Shown piece after piece: positions 3,811-33,447 of a DNA stretch of 64,000 bases (its first letter is position 1; each line of letters opens with the position of its first letter). The notes under the pieces are model-generated. The model saw only the letters and a program-made list of their open reading frames with translations, was not told the DNA's origin and ran no database searches. Location of the stretch: the IMG/VR virus record IMGVR_UViG_3300033067_002132, positions 96,001 to 160,000 of that record; one strand, 5' to 3'. The translations under genes were made by a program, and so were the position numbers. The DNA comes from a virus (Duplodnaviria > Caudoviricetes).

Positions 3811-6525
3811 ATGGCAAAAAACATTAGTCAATTTATAACATGCTCTCTTTTAGCTACAGGAGATTTTTTAGCTTCATGGGTAAGCGGTCAAACTTGTAAA
3901 CCAACAACAGATGTTTTAGCTAAATGTTTAGATTTAAATTATTTTCGTACAGAAACTAATCCAGTTAGTTATTCAGGTGAATTAAATCTTCCATTTAGAA
4001 TGTTTAGAATATTTTTAGGAAATACTCTTATTTCGGGTGGAAATTTAGTTGTTAATTCAAATACTGGTTTATTTGTTAAACTTTTAGGTGGATATCAAGC
4101 AGGAAATCAAGCGTCAGGTTTATATTCTTCTGTTTTAGCAGGTACAGGAAACCAAGCGAATACTCCTAATTGTGTTATTGTCGGTGGATCTAATAATTTA
4201 ACAAGAGCTACAGGAAATTTTATAGGAAACGGATTCAGTAATAGTGCTTCTGGAATGTATTCTTCCGTATTAAATGGAGAAGGTAATATTGTAGAAGGAA
4301 GATCAGCAAGCGTTTTAGGTGGAAATTCTAATACCGTATATGCTAATTATACAGTTATTGGAGGGGGTAATAGTAATACAATCGGTTTAAATTCACAAAA
4401 ATCTGCTATTTTAGGAGGTTCTTTTAATACAGTCGCGGCTAGTTCTACTGATTCATGTATTGTCGGTGGTGATCAAAATAGAGTTTTTGGAACGGCATCT
4501 ATTATAATAGGTGGAGAATCTCATATTTTAAGTGGACAATTTAATATGATTGGTGCTGGACTTGATAATGAAATAGGTTGTAGTGGAAACGTTAATTATT
4601 CTTTTATTGGAGCGGGAAGTAGAAATACTATTAAATCAGGAAATCATAGTGTTATTTGTGGTGGATTTAGTAATAGTATTTTAAATCATTATGGTTTTAT
4701 AGGTGGAGGAACAGGAAATTTAATAGGAAAATTAAATGATCCAACTGGTGGATATTTTTCTGCTATTATTGCAGGATCTAATAATACTATTACTGGATTA
4801 AATTCTACTATTGCGGGTGGAAGTGGTAATTCTATTGGTAATTATAATTCTTTTATTGGTGGGGGTGTTAATAATATTATTACTAATAATGGAAATATTT
4901 TTAGTTTAACATCTTGTTTTATTGGTGGTGGTGATTATAATACGATAAATACGGATCAGTCCGCCTTTATTGGAATAGGAACATTACATGTTATTAGTGG
5001 TGGATATTCGGCAATTGTTTGTGGAGATCAAAATAAAATATATAGTTTTGCATCTTTTATTGGAGGTGGACAGGCGAATAAAATTTCTGGAGATTATGCT
5101 TCAATAGTAGGAGGTAGTAATAATAGAATAGCAACAGGAACAACGGTTAGTAATTCATTTATCGGTGGTGGAGAAGATAATTTAATTTTAGGTTTTGATT
5201 CAGCTATTGTTTGTGGTTCATCAAATTATGCAACAGGAAATTTTTCATTTATAGGTGGCGGACAAGGAAATTCCGTAGGATTAAATTCTTCTGTTATGGG
5301 CGGAACTTTAAATAATGCTCAGGGAGATTCAAATTTTATAGGTGGTGGATATAGTAATATTAGTAATGGAAGTTATGCTATTATTTTAGGTGGATATTTA
5401 AATACTTGTGTTGGATATACTAGTCTTATTGTTGGTGGGGAATCTAATAAAGTTTTAAATAATTATAGTATTATTAATGGAGGATCTTCTAATTTAATTA
5501 CAGGAACATTTTCGAATATTTTAGGCGGACAAAGTAATACAATTTTAAGTAGGTATAGTTTAATAGGTGGTGGTTATTCAAATAAAATAGGATTAGATAA
5601 TTCTTGTATTCTTGGAGGAGATACAAATTATATTACAGGAAAGTTTAATTCTACAGGAAAATATTCTTTTATTGGTGGTGGAAGTAATAATAGAATATAT
5701 GAAACAGAATCAGTTATTTTAGGAGGAAATAGTAATACTATTTTAACCGGACAATCTACTATATTAGGTGGATATAATAATACTTTATTTTCTAGATACG
5801 GGTTTATTGGAGGAGGATATAATAATGTTGTTAGTGGAAGAACAACTCTTTCTGAAGGAATGACAATTGTAGGTGGAAATGGAAATTCTATTACAGGTAT
5901 TAGTTATTATTCATTTATTGGGAATGGATTTAATAATAAAATATCTTCAAGTTCTCAGTCTTTTATAGGTTGTGGTTTTAATAATTTAATTACAGGTGGT
6001 ACATATAATTTAATTGTAGGTGGATATTTAAATAATATAAATTCAGGGCAAAATAGTCTTATTGTTGGTGGATCTCAAAATATTATTAGTAAATCAAATT
6101 ATAGTTCCGTTTTAGGTGGTAATAATAATAGTATTTATCAAGGATCTAATTTTTCTTTTATTTTAGGAGGTCAAGATTGTTCTATTTATTCCGGAAATTA
6201 TTCTATAGCAGGAGGACAAAATGCAACAGTTTCAGGAGATAATACTATAGCATTAGGTAGAAGTACAAATATTATACATGAAGGTGCTGTTATTATTGCA
6301 GATGGAACGCCTCTTGTCAAAACTAGCGTAAGAACGAATTCAATGTTATTATATTTTGCGGGTGGAGTTTTTATCACAGGGGGTCATTTATTTGTAGATT
6401 CTGGTGCGGCCCCCGCTACCACAGGTGCCGCAGGAAAAGTTGGAGAAATCGCCTTTGATGGTAATTATATGTACTATTGTGTTTCAGGAAATTCTTGGAA
6501 AAGAACTACTTTATCTACTTGGTAA
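3811..6525 (+). CDS. Tail fibre/adhesin with ~15-aa (S/F)-I-x-GG-x-x-N beta-solenoid repeats
   Basis: Dozens of SFIGGGxxN repeats resembling a trimeric-adhesin head. The C-terminus GKVGEIAFDGNYMYYCVSGNSWKRTTLSTW is a typical phage fibre module. Confidence 0.7.
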   Translation: MAKNISQFITCSLLATGDFLASWVSGQTCKPTTDVLAKCLDLNYFRTETNPVSYSGELNLPFRMFRIFLGNTLISGGNLVVNSNTGLFVKLLGGYQAGNQASGLYSSVLAGTGNQANTPNCVIVGGSNNLTRATGNFIGNGFSNSASGMYSSVLNGEGNIVEGRSASVLGGNSNTVYANYTVIGGGNSNTIGLNSQKSAILGGSFNTVAASSTDSCIVGGDQNRVFGTASIIIGGESHILSGQFNMIGAGLDNEIGCSGNVNYSFIGAGSRNTIKSGNHSVICGGFSNSILNHYGFIGGGTGNLIGKLNDPTGGYFSAIIAGSNNTITGLNSTIAGGSGNSIGNYNSFIGGGVNNIITNNGNIFSLTSCFIGGGDYNTINTDQSAFIGIGTLHVISGGYSAIVCGDQNKIYSFASFIGGGQANKISGDYASIVGGSNNRIATGTTVSNSFIGGGEDNLILGFDSAIVCGSSNYATGNFSFIGGGQGNSVGLNSSVMGGTLNNAQGDSNFIGGGYSNISNGSYAIILGGYLNTCVGYTSLIVGGESNKVLNNYSIINGGSSNLITGTFSNILGGQSNTILSRYSLIGGGYSNKIGLDNSCILGGDTNYITGKFNSTGKYSFIGGGSNNRIYETESVILGGNSNTILTGQSTILGGYNNTLFSRYGFIGGGYNNVVSGRTTLSEGMTIVGGNGNSITGISYYSFIGNGFNNKISSSSQSFIGCGFNNLITGGTYNLIVGGYLNNINSGQNSLIVGGSQNIISKSNYSSVLGGNNNSIYQGSNFSFILGGQDCSIYSGNYSIAGGQNATVSGDNTIALGRSTNIIHEGAVIIADGTPLVKTSVRTNSMLLYFAGGVFITGGHLFVDSGAAPATTGAAGKVGEIAFDGNYMYYCVSGNSWKRTTLSTW

Positions 6526-6531
6526 TATATT

Positions 6532-7431
6532 ATGTCTAAAATTATTAGTTACAAATGTTCTATATTAAAAGGAACAAAAAGAATTATTAGTGCCTCACAT
6601 GTAGATTGGTCTAAAATAAGACCAGCGAGTTATTTAAAAATAAAAGGAAATCCAATTACTTTTGATATTCAAAAAATTAGAGAAAATATTTTTCTTTTTG
6701 ATTTTGAAGTAATTCATCCTAAAAAAATACAATTAAAATCACCATTTGGAGAATATTTTATTAATGATGATTTATTAGAAATCTATTTTATTCAATATGA
6801 ATTAGCTGGATTAATTTCTATAATAGATGGAGGAAGTCATTATAAAGAAAATGATATTGTATATGTAGAAGGAGGAAGCGTATCAATAGATAAGAATTTA
6901 AATAAAGAGAATTATACTTCTTTTAGAGTTTTATCTGTAGATGAAAATGGAAAAATTTTAATGTTAGGATTAGAATCTAAAGGATTATATAATATTCCAC
7001 CATCTCAAACATCTAATTTAATTCAGGGAAATGGTAAAAATGCCGTTATATCTTTAAGATATATAGAAAAAGAAAATAAATCTTTTCTTGAGCAAAATAT
7101 TAAAATAGTAGAAAGAGTTAAATTAGAAAATAAATATAATGTTTATTTACATTTAGAATATCCTCTTCCATCTGGTTTAAAAACAGGAAGTATTTCTACA
7201 AGAAAATGGGAAATTTTATTATCTCAAGAATATACTGAAGAAGATTTATTTAATGTTGATTGTGAAATTATAAATGATTTTACCCCAAATTTTAGATTAC
7301 CTATTTTATTACAAAATAGTTTATCTAAAGAAACAGTAGTAAATAAAAGTTTTACTATTATTGATTACGAATTGGCGCTCCTTAAAGATAGAATACAAAA
7401 ATTAGAAGAAAAATTATCTAGCATTAGCTAA
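6532..7431 (+). CDS. Hypothetical virion-associated protein
   Basis: 299 aa with an IIDGGSHY...GLY..P...GNG motif seen in phage structural proteins and a C-terminal coiled coil. The 3' end overlaps the convergent TMP gene. Confidence 0.4.
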   Translation: MSKIISYKCSILKGTKRIISASHVDWSKIRPASYLKIKGNPITFDIQKIRENIFLFDFEVIHPKKIQLKSPFGEYFINDDLLEIYFIQYELAGLISIIDGGSHYKENDIVYVEGGSVSIDKNLNKENYTSFRVLSVDENGKILMLGLESKGLYNIPPSQTSNLIQGNGKNAVISLRYIEKENKSFLEQNIKIVERVKLENKYNVYLHLEYPLPSGLKTGSISTRKWEILLSQEYTEEDLFNVDCEIINDFTPNFRLPILLQNSLSKETVVNKSFTIIDYELALLKDRIQKLEEKLSSIS

Positions 7432-10400
7432 TAATCCACCATCTTTCTTTTGTGTATTAATTACTTTTAGAACTTCTATTTGTATTAATTCTGCAATACG
7501 TTTATTTTCTTCTACTTTTTTATTTCTATTTTCCTTGCTATTATCTTGTGAATCGGTATTAGATGAAACATTAGTATTAGATGATACATTTTTTCCTTCA
7601 TCAATATTTATTTCAATATTAATATAATTATTTGTACCACCTGTCGATGTACCATCTAATTTTACTTGATTATTCGTTTGTAATGATTGTAAAGTTGTGT
7701 TAATTGAATTAGCCGCTTCTACCATTTTATTTAATGAATCAGAAAAAGAGTCCGATCCACTAGATATTCCAAAATTAGGTACGTTAGATACAGGACCACC
7801 TTCCGCATATCTATTTAATGCGCCTACATTTAATTTTTGAAAGAAATTTGCGCCATATTTTCTTACAGCAGGAGCATTAATTACATATTCTCCACCCATT
7901 AACATAGCCGGAACAGTATCTCTATGATATCCTCCATTTGCATAATGCATAGGTTTTACATAAGTTCCTTTACTTGCATATAAAGCTTTAGGATTAGGAT
8001 TATCTAAAGAAGGAACTTTATTTGGAACGCTTCCATCTATTCCTTTTATACCTTTACTAGATTGATATTGCGAATATGCTCCACCAGCAGTATTAACAGC
8101 GGCACTTATAAAAGCACCTATCATTACTTGTTCTTTTCCTCTTTTATATAATTTAAAAGCTTCGGTTTTTTGTTTTTCGTAATCTTTTTTTCCTTTAATA
8201 TAATTAAGAATATCTTGTTCTTTTTGAAAACGTCTTTGTACTGCGGGACTATCTTCATCTGTTAAAGCAAAATTTGATAAATCAGGATCAAATACGATTT
8301 TTAAACCATCTGGAGAATTAGCATTTTTTCCTTCCGCGAAAACATCATTTAATAATCTAATGTTCGCGCCATTTTGTAATTGTTTTACGCTCGTAGAAGG
8401 AATTTCTTGTTGATTAAATTTTCTTAATAAATCTGGTCCTATTGCTTGTGTTGCTTCTTTATTAATAACCACTTCACCAGGAGATAATAATGTAGCGACA
8501 TCATCTTTTACTCCTGTTCCACCAACTACAGGTCCACCAGTAGAAAAACGTTGAATTCCTGAACTTGTTACTTTTCCACCTGACGCACCTTTAGAAATAC
8601 TTCCTATTGATGATGATTTACTAAATACACCACCTAAAGCACTTTTTCCAACATCTCCGATTGCACTAAAAATATAATTAACACCAATATCTGTAGCCAT
8701 ATCTAAAGCTTTATTTGCTACATTTAAAGCAAAATCTTTTAAAGCTTCATCGGCACTTTTTGTTCCATGAATAAATTCTTTAAAGGCATCTTTAAAAGAA
8801 TCTTTCATACCCTGACCGATTTCATAAACCATATCATTCGTATCTTTTTGAAAAGATGCGAGATTATATCTCCAAGTATCAAAGAATTGCGTGCTTAAAT
8901 CTTGAGGAGTTAATTTACCTAATCTTGCTGCTAAAGTATTAGCTTCTTTAGTTGCTTGAGCAATTTCATCACCAAAAGCTGTCGTTGATTTACGTAAAGC
9001 ATCTGCTTGAACTTTTGCTTCTCTAAACGATTGTTCAATATTTTCTTTACTAATTTTATTTAAAGCGTCTAATGCTTCTTCATATTCTTTATTTAATAAT
9101 CTATTACTTTTAATTTGATCTACTAAATTAACAGCAATAATAGTTTGTATCGCCGCTTGTTTTTCTGCAACTTCCTTTCGTTTTGTTTCTAATTCTAATA
9201 GATTTTTTTGAACATTTATAGCTTCTTGAGCTTTTTGTTCAATAATTTTTGTTCTTTGAGTTTTAGGTTCGGCTTCTGCGGCTTTTTGTAATTCTTGAAC
9301 AGGACTTAATTTGTTATTTTTATTTGTTCTTTGTGTTATTTGATTTTTTTCTTTTTCTATATCAGTAGTAAATTTTAATAAATCACCAAAACCAGTAAGT
9401 TCTTCTGAACCCTTTTTAATTTCTTCATTTAATGCTTCTATTTGTTTTTTAAGAGTAGCTATTTCTGTTTGTCCTTGTGTTATACCATCTAAATTAATTA
9501 CAGTAGTATCTATTATTGATGCAGGGTCTTTTTTGTCTAAATTTGCATCAGAAGAAAAACCACCCAATAAATAATCAGTAATTGATTTATCTCCCTCTTT
9601 ATTTGTCTTTTTAAATTTATCTAATAATCCTTGTGTATTTTTTATATCTTGTTCAGTTACAGAAGATTTTCCACTTTCTATTTCTGTAGATCTATCTAAA
9701 AGATTGTTTAATGTTTTATAATCTTCAGGAAATTTTTGATTAAATGGGGTATATTTTTTATTTTGTTTTTTACCTTCTATATCACTTTCTCCGATTGATA
9801 TTAAAATTTTATCAATAACAGATTTAAAATCTTCATTAAGAGTATTTTGTCTTAAATTAATTTGTTTTCCTGTTGTATCTCTGGTTACGGTTTTAGTAGC
9901 AACATCTTTAGCAATAGCTACTTTTTCTGAATCTATTTGTGCGGATAATATCTGCGCACTTATTTCTTTAATTGTTTGTAAATTTCCCGCAACTCCTGTT
10001 TGTTCTAATGCGCTTTTATAAGCATTTTCGTTTTCATTTAAATAAGTATTAGTAAAATCAAAAATTTGTGAATTTAAAATAGCTATTAAACTATTAATAC
10101 TTGCGACATTTTCAGGAACTCTATCAAATTGAGCTAAAGATTTAACTTGAATATCGGCAATATCAGGAGCAAGAGTTTTTAATTGATCTAATGCATCTAA
10201 CTGATCTTGTGAAAACGAACCAGATAATTTAGCGGCAATTTTAGTAAAATCAATATCTTGATTTATAGAAGCAACTCTTCCTGCGGTTGCTTTTTTAAAT
10301 AAATCTTTAGGAATGTTTTCACCACGAACACCTATGAAATCTGTTAATGTTTGAATTAATTTACCAGAAAAAATTCCTGTATCTTTTGTATTTCCACCAA

Positions 10401-13400
10401 ATTTTAATCCCGCTCCTTCTGTTATTAAAGATCTAAATTGATCTAAAGAAGATCTATCTAAAAATGCTTTAATTCCACCAAATTTAGATAATTTTTCTTG
10501 TTGATCTAAAAGTTGTTTTTCATAATCATTAGAAATTTTTTGTAATTCTAATGTTTGTGATTGTAATTGTTGTACTGCTCTAATTTCATTTGCAAAATCT
10601 TGAAAATTATTTAATAATTCAATATTCGTTTTTTGTGCTTGAATTGGACTTAATCCAAAAGATGTTAATTGTTGGGCACTAATATTTGGTACAGTTTCAG
10701 GATTATTTAAAATTTGACTAATTACATCATTTAATGAATTAGTAAATGTTTTTAAATCAATCTGTGCTAACGTCGCTTTTAATTTTTCAGAAGCATCAAC
10801 AGCAGAACGTTCACCTTTAATAGATGTTTCTTGTACTCTTGCACCGGCATCTGAAAGTTCTTTTGCAAAAATAGCACCGGCTCTTTCTTGTGCTTTTGCT
10901 ACTATTTCTTGTACTGATTTTAATCCTTCAAATTTAGTTTGTAATTCTTCTGTTGCTTTTGATAATCCTAATTGTGCTTTATTAGATAAAAATGGTTCGG
11001 TTAATTTTGTTTCACCTTGTAATTTAGTTAAATTTTTAGAAACACTAAAATTCTTTTGATCTGTTTCTAATTTATTATTTACTAAAGTATTTTTTAAAGA
11101 TTGTTCTGCTAATCCAGAAAGAGAAACGGTTAATGCATTAAGATTTCTTTGAATAGTATCTGATAATATTTGGAAATTTGAATTAACTCTAACCATCGAT
11201 TTTTGAGTTTCTTCAGCAATTTTTACATATTGAGATGTTAAAGAAAGATTTTTAATAGTTTTTTCTATAATTTGAGCAAAAGCTGCCGTATCTCCAACCG
11301 CTTGATTTCCTGCTATTGATCTAAATTGATCGGTGATTTCTTTAGGAACATTTAAATAATTTTCTAAAGCAGTAATTAATGCTTCTGCTCCTGATTTTGA
11401 TCCTACCTCTAATTGTTTTGCTAAATTAACAATGATATCAGTAACATTATTTTTACCAATTTTATCTTCTAGTTTTTTAGGATCAATAGATGTAGAAAGT
11501 ATGTTTTCTATATTTTTACTATTTTTCTTAAAAGATTTATCTTTAGGATCAAAAACCTGCTTATCTAAGAATGAAGTAGCGTTTTCGAATAATTGTCTTA
11601 AACTTAATGCAGCTTTACTTATTTTTTCTTCTTTTCCTAATGCTTCCCCAATTTCCGTCATTACGATTCCTAGTTCTTTTAAACTTCCACTAGCGGCAAT
11701 AATTTGACCACGAAATTCAGGCGGAACCTCTAATAATTTAGTTATAGTATCTTTTCGAAATCTTTCTATATCTCTACTAGAAACTGAACCAGATACATCT
11801 GTTAATGCCGTTTGATATTTTTCTATTGATTGAGCGTATTGACTAATACTACTATTAAATTTATCTAATTTTTCTGAGGCATCGTTAAATGTTTTTTCTA
11901 AATCAGGTAATTGTGTAGTAAATTCTTTATATGCTTGAGAACCACCAATACCTAAACCGAATAATCCTCCCACAGCAATACCTGGAAGCCCGAATGGCGC
12001 ACCAAAAGCTGCTGTAGAACCTACCGTTCCCGCTAAGTTAGATACGGCACTTACTTTTCTTCCTGTAGATGTCTCTGTTCCCACCGCTTCACTAATTGCA
12101 CTAGTAATTACAGGAATAGCAAAACTAGCTATAGTTCCCGCACCGACTAATTTACTAAATCTTTGATTTCTAGCTTGTTCTAATTGAGCATTTAAATTAG
12201 GATCTTCATTAGCTAATGCTTGTGCTTGTTTAGAAGCTAAACTTTTTGGTCGTCCAGAAACAATACCGGAACTTTTCTTAATAATATCAGATGTTTGTTG
12301 ATTATATTGAGCTAAATTTTGTTGATAGTTATTTACATCTTTTACAGCTTTATTTAATGTAGAATCTACTGATTTCCAAACTTTTTGACTTTGAGTAATA
12401 CCCTGTACTGTTTTCTTTAATTCTGTTCTCATTTGTTGAAAAACCGGACTTTGTTTCCAATTTTCACCAAATTTTTCTACATTTAAAATTACTTCTGTAA
12501 TTGCATGATTTATTTGTTCTATTTGTTCAGGTTTAATTCCGCCGCCTTGCCCTAATTGACCAAGATTATTTTGAAAAATAGGCGCGGGATTTGTTGTATC
12601 ATATAAAGATGTTTTAGGAAAACTAGGAGGAGTAGGAATTTGAATCGTTTCCCCATTTGATAATTTTACTGATTTTGTGGCGAAATTAGGAATAAAACCA
12701 TCGGATAATTTAGTTTTTCCACCCGCATATTTTTGAGGATTAAAACCTTGGTTTTTAACCCTATTTAATCCTTGATTTAATCCTAGAGGTTCATCAAAAG
12801 AATTATAAACACCTAAACCTGTTTTATTTTGAGGACTTACTAATTTAGGACTTTTGCCTACTTTAATTCTATTTTTAGGAATTCCCGCACTTGATTCTCT
12901 TTGTATCGCGGCATTTAATGCGCCTAATGGCGGATTAATATAAGCAAAATTAGGAATAAAACCTTCACTAAAAAAAGGATTTGTTAAGTCAGAATCTTCT
13001 ATTTTTTTTCGTTTTATTTTATTAATTCTATCTAATAAATCTCCTTTTATATTAATTCTTGTTAAAAATGGCGAACCATAATCAGCAAATTTATAATCAC
13101 CGCCAGTAAAATTAATATCTCTTAAATCTTTTACTTTATCTTTTTCTATAACTGTAGGACTTCCTGTTAAAAAGGCGGGACCTAAATCTAAACCATGTCC
13201 TATTGTTTTTTTAGGAAGAATACCATTTTCTTCATCTACAGGATTATATCTTTGTGTTTTACCAAATTTTAATAAGATTTTTTTGGTGATATTTTCTAAT
13301 TTTTTAGGAATCGGTTCATCAAAAGTTGCTTCTTCTCCATCAATTATAGAATTATCAAAATTAAAAGCGTCTTGAACAGAGTAACCTTTTTTTCTTTGTG

Positions 13401-16400
13401 CTAATTTAAAACGACCAATCAGATTTCCTAAAGGACTATCTAATGGCGCACTTATAATACTATTTCCAAATTTAGATTTTCTATTTTTTTCCTTTAAATT
13501 TGCTTCTAATGTAGAATTATATCCGAGAGTAGAATGGGGAGTTGTTATATTATTAATAAATTCTTCCGCAGTATTATTAATAGTTTTTACTCCGCCGATG
13601 CCAGAAAAATAACGCGCCGCCCCTAAAAATTTTTCTCCATTTGGATCTTTTTGTATATATTTTTTATATAGTCCAACAGTGCCCGCGCCTAAAGTACCCG
13701 CAATTCTTGTAGGTAATTTTTTTAGAGTATCTTTTGGAGTCTTAAATAAATCTTTAATACCAAATGGATTTGGGCGGAATTGATTATATCCTAAAGTATA
13801 TCTATTTCCAGGAGTAACGAAATTCGGCACAAAACCTTTATTAAAAAGTGTTGTAAAATCTATACCTTCATTAAATTTAGAATCTTGTAATCTTTTTAAT
13901 ATTAATGGAGCTTTTTTATCTAAATCTTCATTAAAAGATTTTCCACCTTCTAATTCTACAGAAGGAAAAGAACTCTCCATACCAAAAGAAACTTTACTTT
14001 TTGAACCGAATTTACCACGACTTAATTGAGGAAACTTTGCTTTTAATATATCGGTAGGATGATCAGATTTTGGTTTATTAAATTGATTTAATAAAAATCC
14101 TTTAACTCCTTTATAATTTCTATTTTTTAAATCTTCTATTAATTCTTTATAAACAATAGAAGACATTCCTTTTCCTTTAAATTTTTCTTTAACGAATATG
14201 TCATCTAAAGTAGGAATTTCTTTACCTAAATCTCCAACTGTCGCCCCACCTATATCATTTTTAAAATATAACGCTTTAAAACTATCTATTCCTGAAATAG
14301 TAGATTGGCCAAAATTAGGAATAAATCCATCTGAGTTTATATTAGCGACAGTTTGTTTCGCCGCTTTAAATAATCTATTACTTAATTTTCCGATTGTACG
14401 AACTTTACGTGGGAATAATTCATTTGGTTGACGTTCAAATCCTTTTACTCCTGAATTTGTTAAAACCTCTCCTAATGCTTTTTTATCATTTAATGTAGAT
14501 TGATTAAATTCTGCTAAAATTTCTTCTAAATAATCTCCTTTTTTATAATTAGATGCAAAAAGATTTTTATATTTTGGACTATTTAATATAGTTCTTTTAG
14601 AAAGATCCATTAATTTTTTAGGACCTTTAAAAATTTCATTAGATTTATTTTCTAATAAAGATGATAAATTTTGTCCGTTTGAATCTTTAGATAAATTAAT
14701 TGCTCTATGAGAACTTTCATGTGCTAATACTTGCGCCATAGTATTAGTATCTAAATCTTTTTGAATTTCTATTGTATTATTATTATTATAAACTCCCGAA
14801 ACAGGATATTTATATCGATATTTTTTTGAAATATTATCCGTTAAACTAAAATCTTTATTTTTAATTCCTTTTAATGCTTTTCGATAACCTGAAAGAATAT
14901 TAATAGGAAGAAAATTTGGAACGAAACCGTCGTTAATATAATTATTCGATTCTAATTTTTTATCTATTTTTTTATTTATTTCTGTAGTTATAGGTGATTT
15001 TTTAGATGCTTTTACTTTTCCTGCAAACGTAATCGGTTCGGTGATTTTACTTATTCCATATCTAACTAAACTAGATATTGGAGAATTAGAATAATTTATA
15101 TATTTGTCTTTTTCTTCTATTTTAGTAAAAGCATTAATAAAAGCTTCTAATCTATTTTTAATAGGAGTTCCTTTTGCTTCTTTAAAATTTGATTTACCCT
15201 GTTTAAATGCTTCTTTTAATTTGGGTAATAAATCTTTCTTTTCTTGATCATGTAAATTAAGATCAAAAATATCACGATATTTAATATCTCTAACTGGTAA
15301 ACCTTGGTCTCGTGGAGATAAATCTAATTCTGCATTATATCCCGCCATAATATTATGATTAGCAGGATTTATTAATAATTTATTTTTATTTTTATCTAAT
15401 ACAGAAGAATTAGTATTAAAATTAGATAATTTATTATTGATAGTATATGGAATATTTCTATATGATTCCGTTCCTTTTCTAAAAGCATAAATGTTTTTTC
15501 TAGCAATATTAGGAATTCCTTTTCCTTGTTGATAAATATATTTACTTGGATCTATTCTTTGTTCTAATCCAAACATTTTTCTAAAAGCAAAATCTCTTAT
15601 TGTATGTGTTTCTTTATCAATAGGGTCTTTAATTAATTTACTTATATATGGTGTAGGTGTATCTTTTACTATTGCTTTATAATAATCTTTAAATTTTAGT
15701 CCTTTTAATTCTTTTAATTTATCTGTAAAATTATAGGAATATGGAGTTACTAAATTAGTCATAGCGCGACCTACTAATTTACTTAATCCAGGAACTAAAG
15801 CAAAATTAGGAACATGACCGTCATAATCTAAATCTTTTTTACCAGGAATAAAGCCTTGATTAAAATTAGAAATATTATTATTAGTAATATTTTTACAATA
15901 AGGATCAAAACCTAATTTTTGTTTAAATTCTTTTTGATAATTTTTACCTGCTTTACTATTTTGTGGCGGAATAATAGCCGGTTGTTCCATTCCAGGAAAT
16001 TTTTTAACTTTTTCCGCGCTATTGTAAATTACATTACCAACTTTCGGTAATGACATTTGTTTTATAGATCCGGGTGTATATCCACCCGCGTAAGCACCTA
16101 TTTTTTCTATTTTACTATTATCAGAAAAATTAGGTATAAATCCTTGCGATTTAGTTTTTTTATTTAAAACAGAAAAATCTTGATTTCCAATAGGAATATT
16201 AGAAAATTGATATCCACTTGTTCTTAATGTCGTTGCTATTTTATTAATTAATCCTAATCTATTTTGTTCAAGAGCATTTGCTTCACGTAATTTATTAATT
16301 ACAATATCTTCTGCGCTAGCAATAGTTAACGTTCCATTTCTAATTCTATCTAAAGTACCTGTTTGTTGAGATAATATTTGATTAACTCTTAATGCTAATT

Positions 16401-17787
16401 CTCCTTGTAAATTTAATTCTTTACTTGCTTGAAAAATTTTAACAATAGATTTAGCGGCAAATTCTCCTAATCTTCCTAATAATTTACCAATTAAGACAGT
16501 ACCAACGAATAAACCAGGACCAGTTAAAAACTGTCCTAAACCTTGCATAAATACTTTACCGAAACTAAAACCACTATCTTGCGCTTGATCTTCATTAATA
16601 ATTTCTATACCACTATTAAAATTTTCAAGAACATTTTTTAAATTAGGGCTAATCGCTAAATTACCAAATTTAGATCCAAATTTAGCCAAATTATTTCCCG
16701 TTTGATTTAATAAAGAACTAAGAGTTTTATTTAGTGCAGCCACACGTATTTCTGCTTCGTTTGTAGAGTCTGCTGCGGTTTTTGTTGCTAAAGAAGTTAA
16801 ATTATATTGTTTACTTAAATCAGCTAATGCCGCCGAAACAATGTTAATTTGAAATACGCCACCAGCTAATTCTTTAATTGTACTTGCCGTTCCTCTATCT
16901 ACATTTTGTATAGCATCTGAAAGTGATTGTAGCTTTTGAATACCTGTCTGGCTGGCGTCTATTTGAACTCCAAGAGCTTTTAATTGTTCAATAGAGTCAG
17001 GACGGCTTAAACGAGTAAAGATGCTCTTAAAGGCGTTACCGATGACAGCGCCACCACGAGCCGTTGTTTGTTGTACAGCGGTTACTAAACCAATTAATTG
17101 ATCTATACTAACACCCGCATCTTCAGACGTACTACCTACGCGACTAATAGCTTCCGCTAAATCAGATGCGGAAACAGCGAATTTTGAATCGACATTAGCT
17201 AATTTACTAACTAATGTTAAATCATCTAAAGAAGCTTTATTAAATGAATTAATAGCAGCGGTAATAGTATCTACGCTTTTTGCTGCATCTAATCCTGAAA
17301 TTCTTGTTAATGTTAATGCGGCTTCTGTTCTTTTTAATGTAGCTTCTAAAGTTAAACCTTGACGAGCTAATTCAAGAGCAGCGGTTGCGGTTGTATCAAA
17401 ACTTTGACCTGTTTTATTTGCTACTTCAAATAATGAACCAGCAAATTTATTAAAATCTTTTTCACTCGCATTTAAAATAACGCGAATATCTGTTAATTTC
17501 TTTTCTACTTCAATAGTAGTAGAAACTAATTCACTAAAAGCTTTTTGAATACCATAAACTAATCCGGCAGAAGCACCGAAAGCAATAACACGAGCATTAG
17601 AAGCGGCTAATGATTTATCAAAATCACTAACATTTGCACTTAATTTACCAAGAGGTTGACTAAACGAGTTAGTTCGAATTCTTAAATCAATTGGTGTATT
17701 AGCAATTCTTTGCAATTTTCCTAGAGCCTTTTCCGCGGGCGTGGTAATTGCATTTACATCTACATATACTCTACCTATACTTGGCAT
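7414..17787 (-). CDS. Tail tape measure protein (3457 aa) with an internal multi-domain cargo cassette
   Basis: N-terminal TP901-type tape-measure core (LARQGL...DAAKSVDTITAAINSF...FKSIFTRL), Gly-rich hydrophobic segments, long coiled coils and two C-terminal GG..D.V..L..GE.VIN motifs. It lies downstream of the tail tube and chaperones. Confidence 0.92.
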   Translation of the reverse strand: MPSIGRVYVDVNAITTPAEKALGKLQRIANTPIDLRIRTNSFSQPLGKLSANVSDFDKSLAASNARVIAFGASAGLVYGIQKAFSELVSTTIEVEKKLTDIRVILNASEKDFNKFAGSLFEVANKTGQSFDTTATAALELARQGLTLEATLKRTEAALTLTRISGLDAAKSVDTITAAINSFNKASLDDLTLVSKLANVDSKFAVSASDLAEAISRVGSTSEDAGVSIDQLIGLVTAVQQTTARGGAVIGNAFKSIFTRLSRPDSIEQLKALGVQIDASQTGIQKLQSLSDAIQNVDRGTASTIKELAGGVFQINIVSAALADLSKQYNLTSLATKTAADSTNEAEIRVAALNKTLSSLLNQTGNNLAKFGSKFGNLAISPNLKNVLENFNSGIEIINEDQAQDSGFSFGKVFMQGLGQFLTGPGLFVGTVLIGKLLGRLGEFAAKSIVKIFQASKELNLQGELALRVNQILSQQTGTLDRIRNGTLTIASAEDIVINKLREANALEQNRLGLINKIATTLRTSGYQFSNIPIGNQDFSVLNKKTKSQGFIPNFSDNSKIEKIGAYAGGYTPGSIKQMSLPKVGNVIYNSAEKVKKFPGMEQPAIIPPQNSKAGKNYQKEFKQKLGFDPYCKNITNNNISNFNQGFIPGKKDLDYDGHVPNFALVPGLSKLVGRAMTNLVTPYSYNFTDKLKELKGLKFKDYYKAIVKDTPTPYISKLIKDPIDKETHTIRDFAFRKMFGLEQRIDPSKYIYQQGKGIPNIARKNIYAFRKGTESYRNIPYTINNKLSNFNTNSSVLDKNKNKLLINPANHNIMAGYNAELDLSPRDQGLPVRDIKYRDIFDLNLHDQEKKDLLPKLKEAFKQGKSNFKEAKGTPIKNRLEAFINAFTKIEEKDKYINYSNSPISSLVRYGISKITEPITFAGKVKASKKSPITTEINKKIDKKLESNNYINDGFVPNFLPINILSGYRKALKGIKNKDFSLTDNISKKYRYKYPVSGVYNNNNTIEIQKDLDTNTMAQVLAHESSHRAINLSKDSNGQNLSSLLENKSNEIFKGPKKLMDLSKRTILNSPKYKNLFASNYKKGDYLEEILAEFNQSTLNDKKALGEVLTNSGVKGFERQPNELFPRKVRTIGKLSNRLFKAAKQTVANINSDGFIPNFGQSTISGIDSFKALYFKNDIGGATVGDLGKEIPTLDDIFVKEKFKGKGMSSIVYKELIEDLKNRNYKGVKGFLLNQFNKPKSDHPTDILKAKFPQLSRGKFGSKSKVSFGMESSFPSVELEGGKSFNEDLDKKAPLILKRLQDSKFNEGIDFTTLFNKGFVPNFVTPGNRYTLGYNQFRPNPFGIKDLFKTPKDTLKKLPTRIAGTLGAGTVGLYKKYIQKDPNGEKFLGAARYFSGIGGVKTINNTAEEFINNITTPHSTLGYNSTLEANLKEKNRKSKFGNSIISAPLDSPLGNLIGRFKLAQRKKGYSVQDAFNFDNSIIDGEEATFDEPIPKKLENITKKILLKFGKTQRYNPVDEENGILPKKTIGHGLDLGPAFLTGSPTVIEKDKVKDLRDINFTGGDYKFADYGSPFLTRINIKGDLLDRINKIKRKKIEDSDLTNPFFSEGFIPNFAYINPPLGALNAAIQRESSAGIPKNRIKVGKSPKLVSPQNKTGLGVYNSFDEPLGLNQGLNRVKNQGFNPQKYAGGKTKLSDGFIPNFATKSVKLSNGETIQIPTPPSFPKTSLYDTTNPAPIFQNNLGQLGQGGGIKPEQIEQINHAITEVILNVEKFGENWKQSPVFQQMRTELKKTVQGITQSQKVWKSVDSTLNKAVKDVNNYQQNLAQYNQQTSDIIKKSSGIVSGRPKSLASKQAQALANEDPNLNAQLEQARNQRFSKLVGAGTIASFAIPVITSAISEAVGTETSTGRKVSAVSNLAGTVGSTAAFGAPFGLPGIAVGGLFGLGIGGSQAYKEFTTQLPDLEKTFNDASEKLDKFNSSISQYAQSIEKYQTALTDVSGSVSSRDIERFRKDTITKLLEVPPEFRGQIIAASGSLKELGIVMTEIGEALGKEEKISKAALSLRQLFENATSFLDKQVFDPKDKSFKKNSKNIENILSTSIDPKKLEDKIGKNNVTDIIVNLAKQLEVGSKSGAEALITALENYLNVPKEITDQFRSIAGNQAVGDTAAFAQIIEKTIKNLSLTSQYVKIAEETQKSMVRVNSNFQILSDTIQRNLNALTVSLSGLAEQSLKNTLVNNKLETDQKNFSVSKNLTKLQGETKLTEPFLSNKAQLGLSKATEELQTKFEGLKSVQEIVAKAQERAGAIFAKELSDAGARVQETSIKGERSAVDASEKLKATLAQIDLKTFTNSLNDVISQILNNPETVPNISAQQLTSFGLSPIQAQKTNIELLNNFQDFANEIRAVQQLQSQTLELQKISNDYEKQLLDQQEKLSKFGGIKAFLDRSSLDQFRSLITEGAGLKFGGNTKDTGIFSGKLIQTLTDFIGVRGENIPKDLFKKATAGRVASINQDIDFTKIAAKLSGSFSQDQLDALDQLKTLAPDIADIQVKSLAQFDRVPENVASINSLIAILNSQIFDFTNTYLNENENAYKSALEQTGVAGNLQTIKEISAQILSAQIDSEKVAIAKDVATKTVTRDTTGKQINLRQNTLNEDFKSVIDKILISIGESDIEGKKQNKKYTPFNQKFPEDYKTLNNLLDRSTEIESGKSSVTEQDIKNTQGLLDKFKKTNKEGDKSITDYLLGGFSSDANLDKKDPASIIDTTVINLDGITQGQTEIATLKKQIEALNEEIKKGSEELTGFGDLLKFTTDIEKEKNQITQRTNKNNKLSPVQELQKAAEAEPKTQRTKIIEQKAQEAINVQKNLLELETKRKEVAEKQAAIQTIIAVNLVDQIKSNRLLNKEYEEALDALNKISKENIEQSFREAKVQADALRKSTTAFGDEIAQATKEANTLAARLGKLTPQDLSTQFFDTWRYNLASFQKDTNDMVYEIGQGMKDSFKDAFKEFIHGTKSADEALKDFALNVANKALDMATDIGVNYIFSAIGDVGKSALGGVFSKSSSIGSISKGASGGKVTSSGIQRFSTGGPVVGGTGVKDDVATLLSPGEVVINKEATQAIGPDLLRKFNQQEIPSTSVKQLQNGANIRLLNDVFAEGKNANSPDGLKIVFDPDLSNFALTDEDSPAVQRRFQKEQDILNYIKGKKDYEKQKTEAFKLYKRGKEQVMIGAFISAAVNTAGGAYSQYQSSKGIKGIDGSVPNKVPSLDNPNPKALYASKGTYVKPMHYANGGYHRDTVPAMLMGGEYVINAPAVRKYGANFFQKLNVGALNRYAEGGPVSNVPNFGISSGSDSFSDSLNKMVEAANSINTTLQSLQTNNQVKLDGTSTGGTNNYINIEINIDEGKNVSSNTNVSSNTDSQDNSKENRNKKVEENKRIAELIQIEVLKVINTQKKDGGLLANAR
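12682..16143 (-). repeat. Eight dispersed G-F-(I/V)-P-N-F-type peptide repeats within the TMP
   Basis: 16126-16143 GFIPNF (aa549); 15841-15855 GFIPG (aa645); 15802-15819 GHVPNF (aa657); 14911-14928 GFVPNF (aa954); 14311-14328 GFIPNF (aa1154); 13819-13836 GFVPNF (aa1318); 12946-12963 GFIPNF (aa1609); 12682-12699 GFIPNF (aa1697). Confidence 0.9.
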
Positions 17788-17817: not shown

Positions 17818-18828
17818 TTAAGCACCTTGGAGTCTAATCATATCATCTATACTTAAACTTCCGCCTTTTTTCTGAGCTTCTTTTATAATATTATTAGATA
17901 AATTAGCACCCGAACTATCCATACCCATAGCTTTTAGATCTTCTTTGGTTGCCCCCACCAAAGAAGACGCCACAAAATCTTTATCTTTTTTATTAGTTTT
18001 AGATAATAAATCTTCTGCTTGTTGACTTGAATCATACCATTCTAATAGTTTTTCAGGATCTTGCATTAAATCATCTGGTACTTTATTTTTCGAATTAATT
18101 AAAATATTCTTAAAAGTTTTAGCATATTCAAAAACCTGTGTTTGATAAAAAGTGAGATGAATTACCGCTTTTCCATAAAAAGTATATGGATTATCATCTG
18201 CTATTATAAAAAGATTCATATACGCGGGCGAGAGAGCAACACATTTTAAATTTTTAACAGAAAAATTTTCTATATATTTTTCATGCTCATTATATAATTT
18301 ATTTAATTGTTCGTCTTCTAATTCATCGTATTCTTCTTCATTATATAAAGAATTTATTAAATTAATATCTTTATATAACATATGTTTCATATAATGTTCA
18401 TTTATTTTTTTATTAGCATATGTTTCAGCGGTTAAACCGATTAAATCTGTTTTTTTACTATTTAAAATTTCGACATCATTAGTAACATCTTTAATTTGTT
18501 TATCTATAATATCTTTTTCTCTTTTTTTAAATATTTTTGAACGAGTAGTTTTTAATCTTATTAATAAATCGTTTGATTCGGATAATTTTTTTTCTTCATC
18601 TTTTGTCCATTGATTATTTTCTATTAAAAGTTTTTCTTTTGTTTCTTTGTTAGGTAATCCTTTACTAATAGCTTTTTCTAAATTTAATGTATATATTTCA
18701 TCTATAAAAGCCGAATCAAAAGGTCCAAAATGTTTGAAATATAAAATGCCAAAATCAGAAGACACAATTTTAGTGTATCCTCTGATTATATCAGCAAACA
18801 AATTTTTAATTTTTGAATTAGTCGTCAA
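17818..18828 (-). CDS. Putative tail assembly chaperone (pre-TMP)
   Basis: Charged helical 336-aa protein with a TTG start, directly upstream of the TMP; position-based call. Confidence 0.5.
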   Translation of the reverse strand: MTTNSKIKNLFADIIRGYTKIVSSDFGILYFKHFGPFDSAFIDEIYTLNLEKAISKGLPNKETKEKLLIENNQWTKDEEKKLSESNDLLIRLKTTRSKIFKKREKDIIDKQIKDVTNDVEILNSKKTDLIGLTAETYANKKINEHYMKHMLYKDINLINSLYNEEEYDELEDEQLNKLYNEHEKYIENFSVKNLKCVALSPAYMNLFIIADDNPYTFYGKAVIHLTFYQTQVFEYAKTFKNILINSKNKVPDDLMQDPEKLLEWYDSSQQAEDLLSKTNKKDKDFVASSLVGATKEDLKAMGMDSSGANLSNNIIKEAQKKGGSLSIDDMIRLQGA

Positions 18829-19558
18829 GATCGTTAGAAATGTTATCTATATTTTTAAAATCTTCTTCTGTAACAGCACGTCCCGTATACCAAAAACTAA
18901 CTAAAAAGAATAATTTTTTAATAACTAATTTAGTAAAATTATCATCAGATTCATCTAATTCATCATATTTTTTAATTTTATCTTCAAATGTTCCTTCACC
19001 AAAAAATAGAGATTCACTATTATCTGGATTAATTTTATATGAAAGATTTAATATATACCAAAGAATAGTTTTATTTCTTGCTATATTTTCGGCGGTTTGA
19101 CTAAATAAAGATTCTTGTTGTAATTCAAATTTTTGTAATTCATTTCTTATATCACCTAATTCATTTAAAATTGCGATTGCGCGTTCTTCTTGTTCTTTAT
19201 TTCTTTCTTTTTGCGCAAGTAATTGAAATTCTATTTGTAATTTATTAGAATCTTGTCTAAACTTTTCTAATTTTTCTTTTTCAGGTTTGCTTAAAATGCC
19301 CCCGTCATCAAGAAATCTTTTATATAATTGAGAAGATGTTAATAATCCTGCTTTAATACCATTCGCTACATTAACTGCGTGAAATAATTCCGCGTCATCT
19401 ATTAATGATCTATTTGGTTTTCTAATAAAAAAAGAAACAGGAACTTGAATTGTCGTCGGTTTTTCTATTTTAACCGTTTCGCCTTTTTCATTTTTTGATT
19501 CTTCTATTTCTATTTTTGTTTCTTCTTTATTAACACTAAATTGATATATTTTTTTCAT
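18818..19558 (-). CDS. Putative tail assembly chaperone
   Basis: Charged coiled-coil protein between the tail tube and TMP. The likely start is MKKIYQF at 19558 rather than 19585. Confidence 0.5.
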   Translation of the reverse strand: MKKIYQFSVNKEETKIEIEESKNEKGETVKIEKPTTIQVPVSFFIRKPNRSLIDDAELFHAVNVANGIKAGLLTSSQLYKRFLDDGGILSKPEKEKLEKFRQDSNKLQIEFQLLAQKERNKEQEERAIAILNELGDIRNELQKFELQQESLFSQTAENIARNKTILWYILNLSYKINPDNSESLFFGEGTFEDKIKKYDELDESDDNFTKLVIKKLFFLVSFWYTGRAVTEEDFKNIDNISNDLDD

Positions 19559-19565
19559 TTTATTC

Positions 19566-19805
19566 TTAATCCTTTTTATTATCAATTAATTTGATAAAAT
19601 TATCTAAAGTTTCTTCTAATTCTCTAATAGAATCATTTCCATTATCTAAGATTCTTTTTCTAATTATTTGATAATCTAAATCATTAATTTGACCTTTAAT
19701 TTTTAAATCTTCCGCAGAAGATAAAAAATTTTTATATAAATTTGTGATAGATCGACGAAATTGAAACTTTAAAAGTTCCATTAAAGATGCGTTATTAATC
19801 TCCAT
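19566..19805 (-). CDS. Hypothetical protein (79 aa)
   Basis: Preceded by GTGTAA and an AGGTAAAAGGAA ribosome-binding-like element. Confidence 0.6.
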   Translation of the reverse strand: MEINNASLMELLKFQFRRSITNLYKNFLSSAEDLKIKGQINDLDYQIIRKRILDNGNDSIRELEETLDNFIKLIDNKKD

Positions 19806-31968: not shown

Positions 31969-33447
31969 TTATTTGTTATCTCCGAATTCTAATATTATTC
32001 CGTCTTCTAAACTAAATGCTTTCTTCATTTTTTCAGCAATAGTTTGCTCAACGCTTTGAGTATTAGGTATCGAAGATTTTTCTTTATTTCCATTATCTAT
32101 TACATTTCCTACTGTTTCTTGGGAAATTGTTTCAGATGCTTTTACTTTATTTTTTAAAAGTATAGTTAATTTATTTTCGTAATTTTTAAATCCTTCTTCA
32201 TCAAGTTCTTTAATATCTTTAGCAATTACTTCTCGTTCTTCTTTTTCGAATTTAAAAGAACTATCTAATTTAGACATTCTTGAACTAAATACTTCTAATT
32301 TCTCTTGATCTTTTTGTTTTTGATCAATTTCCGCTAGTTTAGTTGTTAAAATAGTTAATTTTTCACTAATTTCTGAATTCGTTTTCTTTAAAGTTTCATG
32401 TTCCGCTTTTAAAGTTTCATAATCTTTTGAAAGTTTTTCTGCTTTTTCTTTTTCCGCGGCTAAAGCTTCTTCTTTTACTTTAGATTCGGATTTTGTTTTT
32501 TCTTCTAAGCTCGAAAGATTTTCATCAATTTGATTTTTAATAAAGTCAGTCATTTCGTTAGCAGTTACTTGCTTCAAAACTTCATCATTTATATCTGATA
32601 GTTTTTTAAGGTTGACCTTCATAATATTATTTGATTCATTGAGATTTACATCTGTTTTAGTTAAATGGGAAGAATTAACTTCATTATCTACTAATTCTTC
32701 TTCTTTTTCTATTTTATTTACCGCTATTCCTTTAACATCAGCAGCGGGTTTTTCTGTTAATCCTATTCCTAAGGGTAAAACCTCTCCCTTCGCTAATCTA
32801 TAAATACGTGTTTTTTCATCAATTTTTCCTGATCCACCTAATCCTTTTAAATTCATTTCTATAGCTAACATTTCTTTAGGATCTTCAATTATTGTTTTTG
32901 CGTCTTCTAGATTTCTTGAATCTCCTTCTATTAATACGAGAGAATAATCCGAAAAACCAACTTCCCAACTTGCTGAAACTTTTTGATAAAAATCTGAAGT
33001 TTCGTCGTTTGTTTCTTCTATTATGTCTGTTATTTTTTCGTTTATTGTTCTCCATAAAATTCCACCTAAAGTTACATTAAATGGTTTTTTAATATCTTTT
33101 AAATCTTCTATATTTAAAGATTTATCTGTTCCATATTCAGAAAAATTGGCGGTTAATACAACTCCGATTATTGATTGTCTATTATGCTCTATATTAATTG
33201 GCTTATTAATAAATAAATTAGCCATATTAATGGCTGTTTCTGTATCTACCCCATCGCCATTTTTATTAAATTTATTAGCAACAAAAGCATTAAATACAAC
33301 AGGTAATAAATCAATATTTTTTTCTGTATCTATTTTAGGTAAATAATTTCTTAAAGTATCCAAAGATGCTAATGATAAATATTTATCTTTTTCAGAAGAT
33401 ACTATTGGCGTTATATGTGAACTAAATAATATTTTAAATTTAGACAT
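31969..33447 (-). CDS. Prohead protease fused to scaffolding coiled coil
   Basis: NKNGDG, KPINIEH, SASWEVGF and GIGLTEKPA are protease motifs; an E/K-rich coiled-coil C-terminal half follows. Confidence 0.8.
   Translation of the reverse strand: MSKFKILFSSHITPIVSSEKDKYLSLASLDTLRNYLPKIDTEKNIDLLPVVFNAFVANKFNKNGDGVDTETAINMANLFINKPINIEHNRQSIIGVVLTANFSEYGTDKSLNIEDLKDIKKPFNVTLGGILWRTINEKITDIIEETNDETSDFYQKVSASWEVGFSDYSLVLIEGDSRNLEDAKTIIEDPKEMLAIEMNLKGLGGSGKIDEKTRIYRLAKGEVLPLGIGLTEKPAADVKGIAVNKIEKEEELVDNEVNSSHLTKTDVNLNESNNIMKVNLKKLSDINDEVLKQVTANEMTDFIKNQIDENLSSLEEKTKSESKVKEEALAAEKEKAEKLSKDYETLKAEHETLKKTNSEISEKLTILTTKLAEIDQKQKDQEKLEVFSSRMSKLDSSFKFEKEEREVIAKDIKELDEEGFKNYENKLTILLKNKVKASETISQETVGNVIDNGNKEKSSIPNTQSVEQTIAEKMKKAFSLEDGIILEFGDNK

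Follow-up and report, generated by a model that had tools for sequence, protein, structure and literature searches.

Tape measure proteins (TMPs) exit the phage tail before the DNA and form a conduit across the host envelope (PMC12617516; PMC10038345), and several of them harbor a peptidoglycan hydrolase (PMC12617516). Just two TMPs, from T5 and from lambda, are known to be cut, each once, the catalyst being unknown and the exact site in lambda unmapped (PMC12617516, 2025). The TMP of T5, pb2, is cut after R1127, between a hydrophobic stretch and a metallopeptidase domain, into pb2* and pb2C (PMC10038345). In T5 and lambda alike, this maturation (in lambda, of gpH to gpH* and gpHC) takes place next to a hydrophobic stretch, and the T5 cut frees an enzyme domain (PMC10038345; PMC12617516). 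A second group of described systems consists of the polyvalent proteins, virion-associated polypeptides with 2-15 unrelated domains each, GNAT and zincin-like domains included, for which injection together with the DNA and processing into units have been predicted, and whose mosaic domains change fast (Iyer, Burroughs, Anand, de Souza, Aravind 2017; PMC5512222). The present analysis deals with a 64,000-nucleotide stretch of DNA from an uncultured aquatic phage (the window) that comprises bases 96001-160000 of one 193,745-bp contig (IMG/VR record IMGVR_UViG_3300033067_002132; G+C 29%), and with the TMP gene located on it (7414..17787, minus strand; 3457 amino acids, aa). Between aa 549 and aa 1702 of this TMP, six modules are joined by copies of one conserved peptide, and near-identical relatives differ by whole modules at that peptide. 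With a rough probability of 0.45, we infer that this TMP carries an exchangeable array of cargo, the modules presumably being delivered to the host and the joint probably being cut.

A first comparison concerns the polyvalent proteins, which combine many domains of disparate activity in one polypeptide; of the six mutually unrelated modules here, one has a GNAT fold and one an HExxH. Polyvalent proteins are tied to the head and portal (MuF) or to conjugation systems, whereas the carrier here is a TMP; the words 'tape' and 'linker' are absent from the text of the polyvalent paper, and no conserved junction peptide was found there (PMC5512222). In this TMP, every junction bears one invariant peptide. 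Polyvalent signature domains (MPTase-PolyVal, LPD1-40, MuF/portal fusion) were not found by Pfam in this TMP and five diverse relatives. Secondly, the T5 and lambda TMPs undergo one cut near the C-terminus and no module exchange, whereas seven or eight joints lie in the N-terminal half here. Thirdly, TMPs of the mycobacteriophage TM4 type contain Rpf and peptidase motifs and T5 pb2 a metallopeptidase, located inside or at the end of the TMP, which act on the host at infection. Such TMP enzymes amount to one to three motifs directed at the cell wall; they are neither delimited by a peptide nor shuffled in combinations, and scans of the six modules against Pfam, PHROG and NCBIfam detected no muralytic families. 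Fourthly, in polymorphic toxins (VENN of CdiA, PxxxxDPxGL of Rhs) a short peptide precedes a recombining variable domain, the Rhs peptide being a cleavage site as well. These bacterial weapons have one variable C-terminal domain and an immunity gene, whereas up to 13 joints occur here in a phage structural protein; immunity-like genes were not seen here. Lastly, T4 internal proteins and phiKZ inner-body proteins are basic, cut at a short consensus and injected early. They are encoded by separate genes and cut by the prohead protease in the capsid, whereas the modules here are joined in a tail protein. TMP-embedded domains and polyvalent injected proteins were known; new here are a multi-copy invariant joint and a combinatorial exchange of modules. 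A literature search returned no paper with these hexapeptides in this context and no paper describing such a TMP layout.

The tape measure protein and its joint peptide

The TMP gene consists of a single open reading frame (ORF), the largest in the window; the coordinates of its parts given below are all on the minus strand. Its PhageMin_Tail domain (PF10145; aa 123-303; 16879..17421) was recognised by Pfam with an E of 1.5e-22 (80.9 bits versus a gathering cut-off of 33.2), 12 PHROG TMP families match the ORF, and its N-terminal 540 aa resemble, at 25-28% identity, sequences annotated as TMPs in Bacillus and Enterococcus phages that have been cultured. Judged by these matches, the 3457-aa ORF is a tape measure protein, as the initial annotation had assumed.

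A pattern scan retrieved six exact copies of G-F-[IV]-P-N-F (starting at aa 549, 954, 1154, 1318, 1609 and 1697). GFIPNF opens the cassette (aa 549-554; 16126..16143), recurs twice (aa 1154-1159; 14311..14328 and aa 1609-1614; 12946..12963) and closes it (aa 1697-1702; 12682..12699), and GFVPNF is found at aa 954-959 (14911..14928) and aa 1318-1323 (13819..13836). Two variant copies, GFIPGK (aa 645; 15838-15855) and GHVPNF (aa 657; 15802-15819), are separated by a 6-aa spacer and were aligned as one split motif (aa 645-662; 15802..15855) after the first module, M0. This motif reads GFIP-GKKDLDYD-GHVP-NF, with an insertion of 12 residues, and is an intact single copy in 16 relatives; it looks like a recombination scar left by the imprecise loss or gain of a module. 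The span 12682..16143 extends exactly from the last to the first motif copy, so that both the borders of the cassette and the six exact plus two variant copies agree with the initial annotation. About 2e-4 motif copies would be expected from the composition of the TMP, and a six-frame scan of the whole 193,745-bp genome returned the full motif in this ORF only, which together exclude a chance origin. Of its four-residue core, [IV]PN[FY], the TMP ORF contains eight copies and the rest of the genome one.

The motif is a property of a large protein family. A HMMER search with aa 540-1710 returned 634 representative proteins at E <=0.001, nearly all of 2000-5300 aa, and 143 of the 150 best relatives contain G-[FYHLM]-[IVLM]-P-N-[FY] in 1 to 13 copies each. 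Four of the seven best relatives lacking it keep the core (e.g., K-K-I-P-N-F-A and Y-E-I-P-N-F-A). Over 613 copies in 151 metagenomic TMPs, the consensus is [AS]-x-G-[FLYH]-[IV]-P-N-[FY]-[AS], the information content dropping to about zero within 3-5 residues on either side, and the motif residues are invariant in TMPs that are otherwise less than 50% identical. In the AlphaFold model of M0 with its flanks, both adjoining motifs, including the first copy at aa 549-554, have a predicted local distance difference test score (pLDDT) below 50 next to a core of 81-90, indicating that the motif sits in a linker, outside the fold. Readings of the motif as sortase-like (LPNTA), outer-membrane beta-signal-like (G-Phi-Phi-Y-Q-F) or FtsZ-tail-like (I-P-x-F) were considered, and none appears to fit the invariant Pro-Asn well.

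The codons differ among the motif copies of this gene, as had been noticed before, and the 140 distinct copies taken from the DNA loci (L001-L044 and the window) display synonymous variation at all six codon positions, roughly to the extent seen in the rest of these genes. This indicates that selection acts on the peptide. The exception is the Pro codon, which is CCT in 67% of the 140 distinct copies versus 36% in the rest of these genes; this excess could reflect either shared descent of the copies or a preference at the DNA level.

A lone copy of the core lies far downstream of the cassette, in GGPVSNVPNFG (about aa 3334-3341; 7765..7788), which was retrieved by pattern scan. The C-terminal part of the TMP is Gly-rich and contains, at aa ~3090-3340, three [FY]-x-x-G-G motifs (FSTGG, YANGG and YAEGG), the third of which is followed by this V-P-N-F. 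Similar [FY]-A-x-G-G motifs occur in lambda gpH (FATGG and YATGG), and T5 pb2 has AEGG directly past its cut site, resembling the C-terminal G-G motifs of this TMP. The joint peptide of the cassette may, to go by these likenesses, derive from this common motif of TMPs. The C-terminal copy was also considered as a general maturation site and rejected, the core being present in the last 400 residues of 11 of 238 relatives only.

Exchange of modules among relatives

Clustering yielded 146 module families in the first 151 proteins, and the 765 modules of 238 full-length TMPs fall into 164 families (113 of them singletons) arranged in 93 architectures. Among the 28 module families that have three or more members, 25 were seen at different ranks, and profile-profile comparison with hhalign links only three sets of families. 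The commonest layout is motif, C0, motif, middle module, motif, C1, motif. The family of M0 (C0; 81 members among the 151 TMPs) provides the first module in most relatives and that of M5 (C1; 70 members) the last. These end modules form a conserved frame, and the modules between them are the variable load. Alignment of the homologues, as had been proposed earlier, showed conserved flanks and a conserved motif together with a variable number and identity of modules; whole-cassette MAFFT alignments were discarded, as fragments piled up on M0 or became anchored on the motifs.

Direct cases of exchange were found in three pairs of near-identical TMPs. P0112 and P0203 share 99.4% identity over the first 500 aa and 97.2% over the last 800 aa and differ by a 163-aa module plus one motif, the break falling inside the motif (...N-G-G-L | I-P-N-F-A...). 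Between P0196 and P0207 (flanks 96.6% and 95.3% identical), identity drops from ~100% to ~15% at motif 2 and returns to ~100% at motif 3. In P0248 and P0250, the last module alone has been replaced. Since near-identical TMPs differ by whole modules and the differences break at the motif, the motif is the joint at which modules are swapped, and the module-swapping junction that the initial annotation had offered as a possibility is borne out. The nearest relative found is P0002 (59% identity over aa 1-648), which has M0, M2, M4 and M5 in common with this TMP but no M1, and carries two different modules where M3 would be.

Breaks inside the motif, together with the CCT excess, are also what would be seen if the motif were only a recombination signal in the DNA, i.e., a microhomology whose peptide has no role. 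Such a signal does not account for synonymous variation at every codon position, nor for amino acids that stay invariant between proteins of less than 50% identity; furthermore, a stretch of 18 bases whose third codon positions vary is poorly suited to recombination. We consider this explanation extremely unlikely.

The commonest middle module of the family (C2, with relatives C15 and C6) is absent from the window. Its consensus, G-x-[IV]-F-E ... F-D-F ... D-x-K, has a spacing reminiscent of PD-(D/E)xK nucleases, a candidate idea; the Glu matching the pattern is not kept in M4. In one relative (P0014; L034:1-5674), the TMP was called as two overlapping ORFs, one of 697 aa with PF10145 and one of 1557 aa, the split lying 47 residues before a motif copy; a frameshift or an error of assembly could account for this, or the gene may really be split. 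The cassette had no tblastn match in 50,697 phage records, cultured isolates included.

Features of the modules

The segments between the motifs, M0 to M5, count 90, 291, 194, 158, 285 and 82 aa, in line with the lengths given by the initial annotation. Its description of Lys-rich and mostly unrelated segments was equally confirmed. Inside the cassette there are 11-18 Lys per 100 residues versus 5-13 in most of the remainder, and Ala is lower; compared with the rest of the TMP, M0 to M5 contain more Lys, aromatic residues and Pro, and their isoelectric points (pI) are 9.4-10.1. This charge is shared by the family, with a median module pI of 9.6 and 86% of the values above 9. The six modules are mutually unrelated by BLAST (best E 0.08).

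The first module, M0 (aa 555-644; 15856..16125), has a mean column identity of 55% in an alignment of 17 sequences, and its AlphaFold core (pLDDT 81-90) is composed of a helix, four strands and a helix. Comparison of this model with the PDB (Foldseek and VIA-wide) and the Atlas gave nothing above a template modelling score (TM) of 0.39 or a Z of 2.3. The second module, M1 (aa 663-953; 14929..15801; delimited by the motifs), belongs to family C10, which is distantly related to C18 (hhalign probability 97%). Its homology search gave eight matches in seven other TMPs, and the match begins at the first residue past the motif in all five TMPs with a recognisable motif just upstream.

The third module, M2 (aa 960-1153; 14329..14910), contains the HESSH (aa 1023-1027; 14707-14721) for which a zincin had been proposed. 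The motif itself stands, as both HESSH and a YLEE located 60 residues downstream are kept in its only homologue (P0002). Membership of a zincin family was not substantiated, since no significant zincin family was found in Pfam or PHROG and no match in the PDB (profile versus PDB sequences); the best family scores were insignificant, namely Peptidase_M78 (E 0.18) and a PHROG metallo-protease (E 0.006), and what the scans matched in M2 was driven by its HExxH. By language-model features, M2 is similar to clusters of hypothetical proteins of ~200 aa; in one such cluster, 18% of the members carry PF18838 (LPD23, a domain of polyvalent proteins), a lead only. M2 is hence a candidate zincin. In the family as a whole, 18 HExxH were counted where 0.2 would be expected, spread over the cassettes of 14 out of 222 TMPs, indicating that zincin-like modules are real but rare.

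The fourth module, M3 (aa 1160-1317; 13837..14310), is the one for which the initial annotation had pointed to a GNAT motif, a claim that holds at the level of the fold. AlphaFold modelled it from an 8-sequence alignment with a mean pLDDT of 87 and a predicted template modelling score of 0.81. In a Foldseek search of the PDB, all of the top 50 rows listed are acetyltransferases or members of the GNAT superfamily (best E 5.5e-4, probability 1.0, TM 0.42-0.45), and VIA-align gave a Z of 8.0 with a root mean square deviation of 3.3 A over 99 residues, every row being a GNAT. The alignment spans GNAT residues from about 40 on, the N-terminal arm being missing or divergent. Matches among the viral models of BFVD are mostly GNATs too. 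Sequence comparison points the same way at lower scores: seven out of seven matches of the profile to the PDB are GNAT or GNAT-like but weak (best E 0.05), and four GNAT families in Pfam are all below threshold (best Acetyltransf_1, 15.6 bits versus a cut-off of 20.7, E 0.02). In the loop before the long helix, where the pyrophosphate-binding Q/R-x-x-G-x-G/A of GNATs is expected, M3 reads K-G-K-G-M-S; G-x-G or G-x-A is present in seven of eight homologues, and the first position varies. M3 has, as modelled, a divergent GNAT fold, that is, the fold of an acyltransferase of the acetyl-CoA type. Its BFVD matches include GNAT-like parts of very long proteins from uncultured phages, present there as chunks of 1200-1400 aa, one of them named RadC-like JAB. 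A further BFVD match is a 'structural protein' of Gundel_1, a Tenacibaculum phage in culture, which could offer a culturable system whose structural protein bears an enzyme.

The fifth module, M4 (aa 1324-1608; 12964..13818; delimited by the motifs), forms family C11 and has homologues in P0002, P0005, P0052, P0018 and P0016; 52 columns of a 4-sequence alignment are invariant, including Q-D, D-N-S and YGSPFL-R. The last module, M5 (aa 1615-1696; 12700..12945), has invariant R-E, N, G, N, D-E-P and G in an alignment of 21 sequences. Conserved polar residues are present in M0, M1, M4 and M5. The end modules M0 and M5 both show a loose G-x-P-x-x-I ... G-x-V-Y-N-[ST]-x-E pattern, and the idea that they are similar domains was dropped (BLAST E 0.08, hhalign probability 0.5%). 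A complex prediction for a clasping of M0 and M5 scored 0.00, which is evidence neither way.

These features bear on the possibility that the modules are selfish or near-neutral inserts, useless to the phage, which spread by recombination at the motif in a permissive region of the TMP. The high share of singletons (113 of the 164 families), the insertions and replacements between near-identical TMPs and the small number of modules resembling known functional families would all suit such inserts. Yet, the reading frames are intact over hundreds of residues in every relative, many polar residues are invariant in the families of M0, M3, M4 and M5, and the charge is uniform, as the pI values show. 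In addition, the two modules that were folded singly, M0 and M3, both gave confident domains, as expected from the independent folding assumed by the initial annotation, and no mobility gene accompanies the modules. Useless inserts are hence improbable, though a small chance is left to them.

Proposed delivery to the host and cleavage of the joint

The position of the cassette within the TMP suggests how the modules could reach the host. Kyte-Doolittle analysis located a hydrophobic segment upstream of the cassette (H1, aa 420-438; 16474..16530; maximum 1.51 in a window of 19) and two hydrophobic, Gly-rich segments downstream of it (H2, aa 1877-1904, and H3, aa 1927-1948; together 11944..12159). 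Among 214 relatives, such a segment precedes the first motif in 202 (median distance 95 aa) and follows the last motif in 174 (median distance 148 aa), and only 10 have one inside the cassette. The cassette may be seen as six basic modules, probably folding independently, that are strung between two membrane-type hydrophobic segments and joined by one conserved peptide. As the TMP leaves the tail first at infection, ahead of the DNA, the modules would reach the host envelope or cytoplasm before the genome does. Their net positive charge would favor movement toward the negative-inside cytoplasm. The cytoplasm is also suggested as their destination by M3, because a GNAT needs acetyl-CoA. Once inside, the modules may act early on the host, in takeover or in counter-defence, and their fast turnover could reflect an arms race.

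The joint peptide itself would be the recognition site for one common partner, most likely a protease, either host-encoded or part of the tail, that cuts the chain into units. The one indication for cutting at the motif comes from T5. In the T5 record, the cut site reads NSFVPR|AEGG, in which the F-V-P in common with the joint motif ends one residue before the cut, and the 1219-aa pb2 contains only two [FLYHM][IV]P tripeptides. By analogy, this resemblance is suggestive.

Several points weigh against an array of delivered and cut cargo. First, the T5 site shares just three residues with the joint (NSFVPR|AEGG versus G-F-[IV]-P-N-F-A). Secondly, no candidate processing protease was identified in the phage. 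An embedded zincin was rejected as the general processing enzyme, as HExxH is present in only 14 of 222 cassettes (~6%). The prohead protease that the initial annotation had placed at 31969..33447 and suggested as a partner could not be confirmed, its product having no Pfam or PHROG family match; moreover, a head maturation protease works inside proheads and tails of this kind assemble separately, so that this product is unlikely to be the processing enzyme. Thirdly, folded domains of ~30 kDa fit poorly in the lumen of the tail tube, which implies that the modules would travel unfolded or lie elsewhere. Fourthly, few known domains were retrieved: in five diverse TMPs, which have as many as 13 motif copies, Pfam found no domain other than PF10145, and in 120 homologues almost none, and M0, M1, M4 and M5 have no match in Pfam, PHROG, NCBIfam or PDB sequences. 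Lastly, the structural scores of M3 are moderate (TM 0.42-0.45, Z 8), with Pfam scores below the curated cut-offs, and no stand-alone homologues were found for M2 and M3 by a search that needs shared 5-residue words; pattern scans of IMG/VR for relatives of both returned none. Without stand-alone homologues, M2 and M3 are not obviously borrowed free-living enzymes.

The most serious alternative to cutting holds that the TMP stays uncut as a multi-domain protein, the joint being an assembly or structural peptide and the modules remaining attached and acting in cis in the envelope. Candidate roles of such a joint are docking of the tail chaperone or the tube lumen, a register contact between TMP copies, and a linker that tolerates transit; the attached modules could, for instance, bind inner-membrane or periplasmic DNA-entry factors and be swapped to track host variation or to escape superinfection exclusion. 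For DNA entry, the TMPs of HK97 and lambda rely on inner-membrane proteins of the host. Like groove-docking peptides, the motif is hydrophobic and aromatic, and its flavours are more uniform within one protein than across the family (0.76 versus 0.63 after shuffling, sequence relatedness not being controlled), which fits one partner of any kind. Most modules are without an enzyme signature, and most relatives have their cassette flanked by hydrophobic segments, which would be placed in the membrane. Moreover, T5 and lambda are the sole known precedents for a cut TMP, with one cut each (PMC12617516). Other observations speak for cargo instead. The GNAT-fold module and the enrichment of HExxH point to catalysis, the GNAT cofactor being cytoplasmic; the long helical parts of the TMP, which likewise need to be chaperoned and measured, do not contain the motif; and a passive linker needs no invariant Pro-Asn. 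On balance, an uncut TMP appears rather unlikely. The reading of delivered cargo can also be given a more specific form, in which a host protease, a component of the tail or a self-cleavage that depends on Asn would cut the joint beside its invariant Pro-Asn, and the TMPs of many uncultured aquatic phages would be polyproteins, setting free as many as a dozen exchangeable effectors in the cytoplasm before the genome enters. In this full form, the proposal is doubtful.

Neighbouring genes and host

The gene order around the TMP recurs in relatives (L033, L035, L037, L038, L040 and L041). The labels of tube and chaperone genes near the TMP were given from position alone, as the neighbours have no family matches: PHROG assigned no family to 9 of 10 neighbouring proteins, and the Pfam matches among them are weak only. 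By sequence comparison, the remainder of this phage is very divergent. Directly upstream of the TMP lie two ORFs of 336 and 255 aa (17818-18828 and 18818-19585, minus strand) with an 11-base overlap. Neither matches a known family, and both occupy the position expected for tail assembly chaperones made by programmed frameshifting. A gene of ~310-340 aa precedes the TMP in seven relatives as well (L035, L037, L038, L040, L041, L043 and L044). At the 3' end, a 299-aa gene without family match (6532-7431, plus strand) is convergent on the TMP, and a gene of 285-304 aa in the same orientation occurs there in L033, L035, L036, L037, L038, L040, L041 and L043. Distal tail genes apparently occupy the strand opposite to the TMP. 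A 904-aa protein (3811-6525, plus strand), probably a fibre, matches an antifreeze-type beta-roll (PF21300; E 2.6e-15) and, weakly, the YadA-head repeat. Elsewhere in the window, a 2484-aa ORF (39023-46477, minus strand) matches collagen-like tail-fibre repeats, with up to 15 stretches per PHROG family, and has a local G+C of 36-40% versus about 27%.

A hint of the host, albeit a weak one, was given by relatives of M0 in genome bins (L047-L051), three out of five of which are assigned to the Flavobacteriales or Flavobacteriaceae and one to a 'Proteobacteria' bin. The Flavobacteriales are the best guess for the host, and a weak one.

Significance

The tape measure protein, known from textbooks as a ruler and a conduit for DNA, is here also a rack of exchangeable modules with a precise, conserved joint. 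This layout is common to no fewer than several hundred different TMPs of lake and ocean origin (the 634 representatives at E <=0.001). The seven-residue rule drawn from 613 copies provides a testable handle on the question of TMP cleavage and, if the joint is cut, would be the first sequence rule for it, defining a tail-borne, combinatorial delivery of effectors distinct from head-packaged and polyvalent proteins. A joint that tolerates arbitrary inserts may also be of use when phage tails are to be loaded with proteins. Should the modules be delivered, the 164 families, almost none of which is annotated, would represent a catalogue of host-takeover or counter-defence activities, and these phages would possess a second route, besides head-packaged proteins, for bringing ready-made proteins into the host before phage gene expression.

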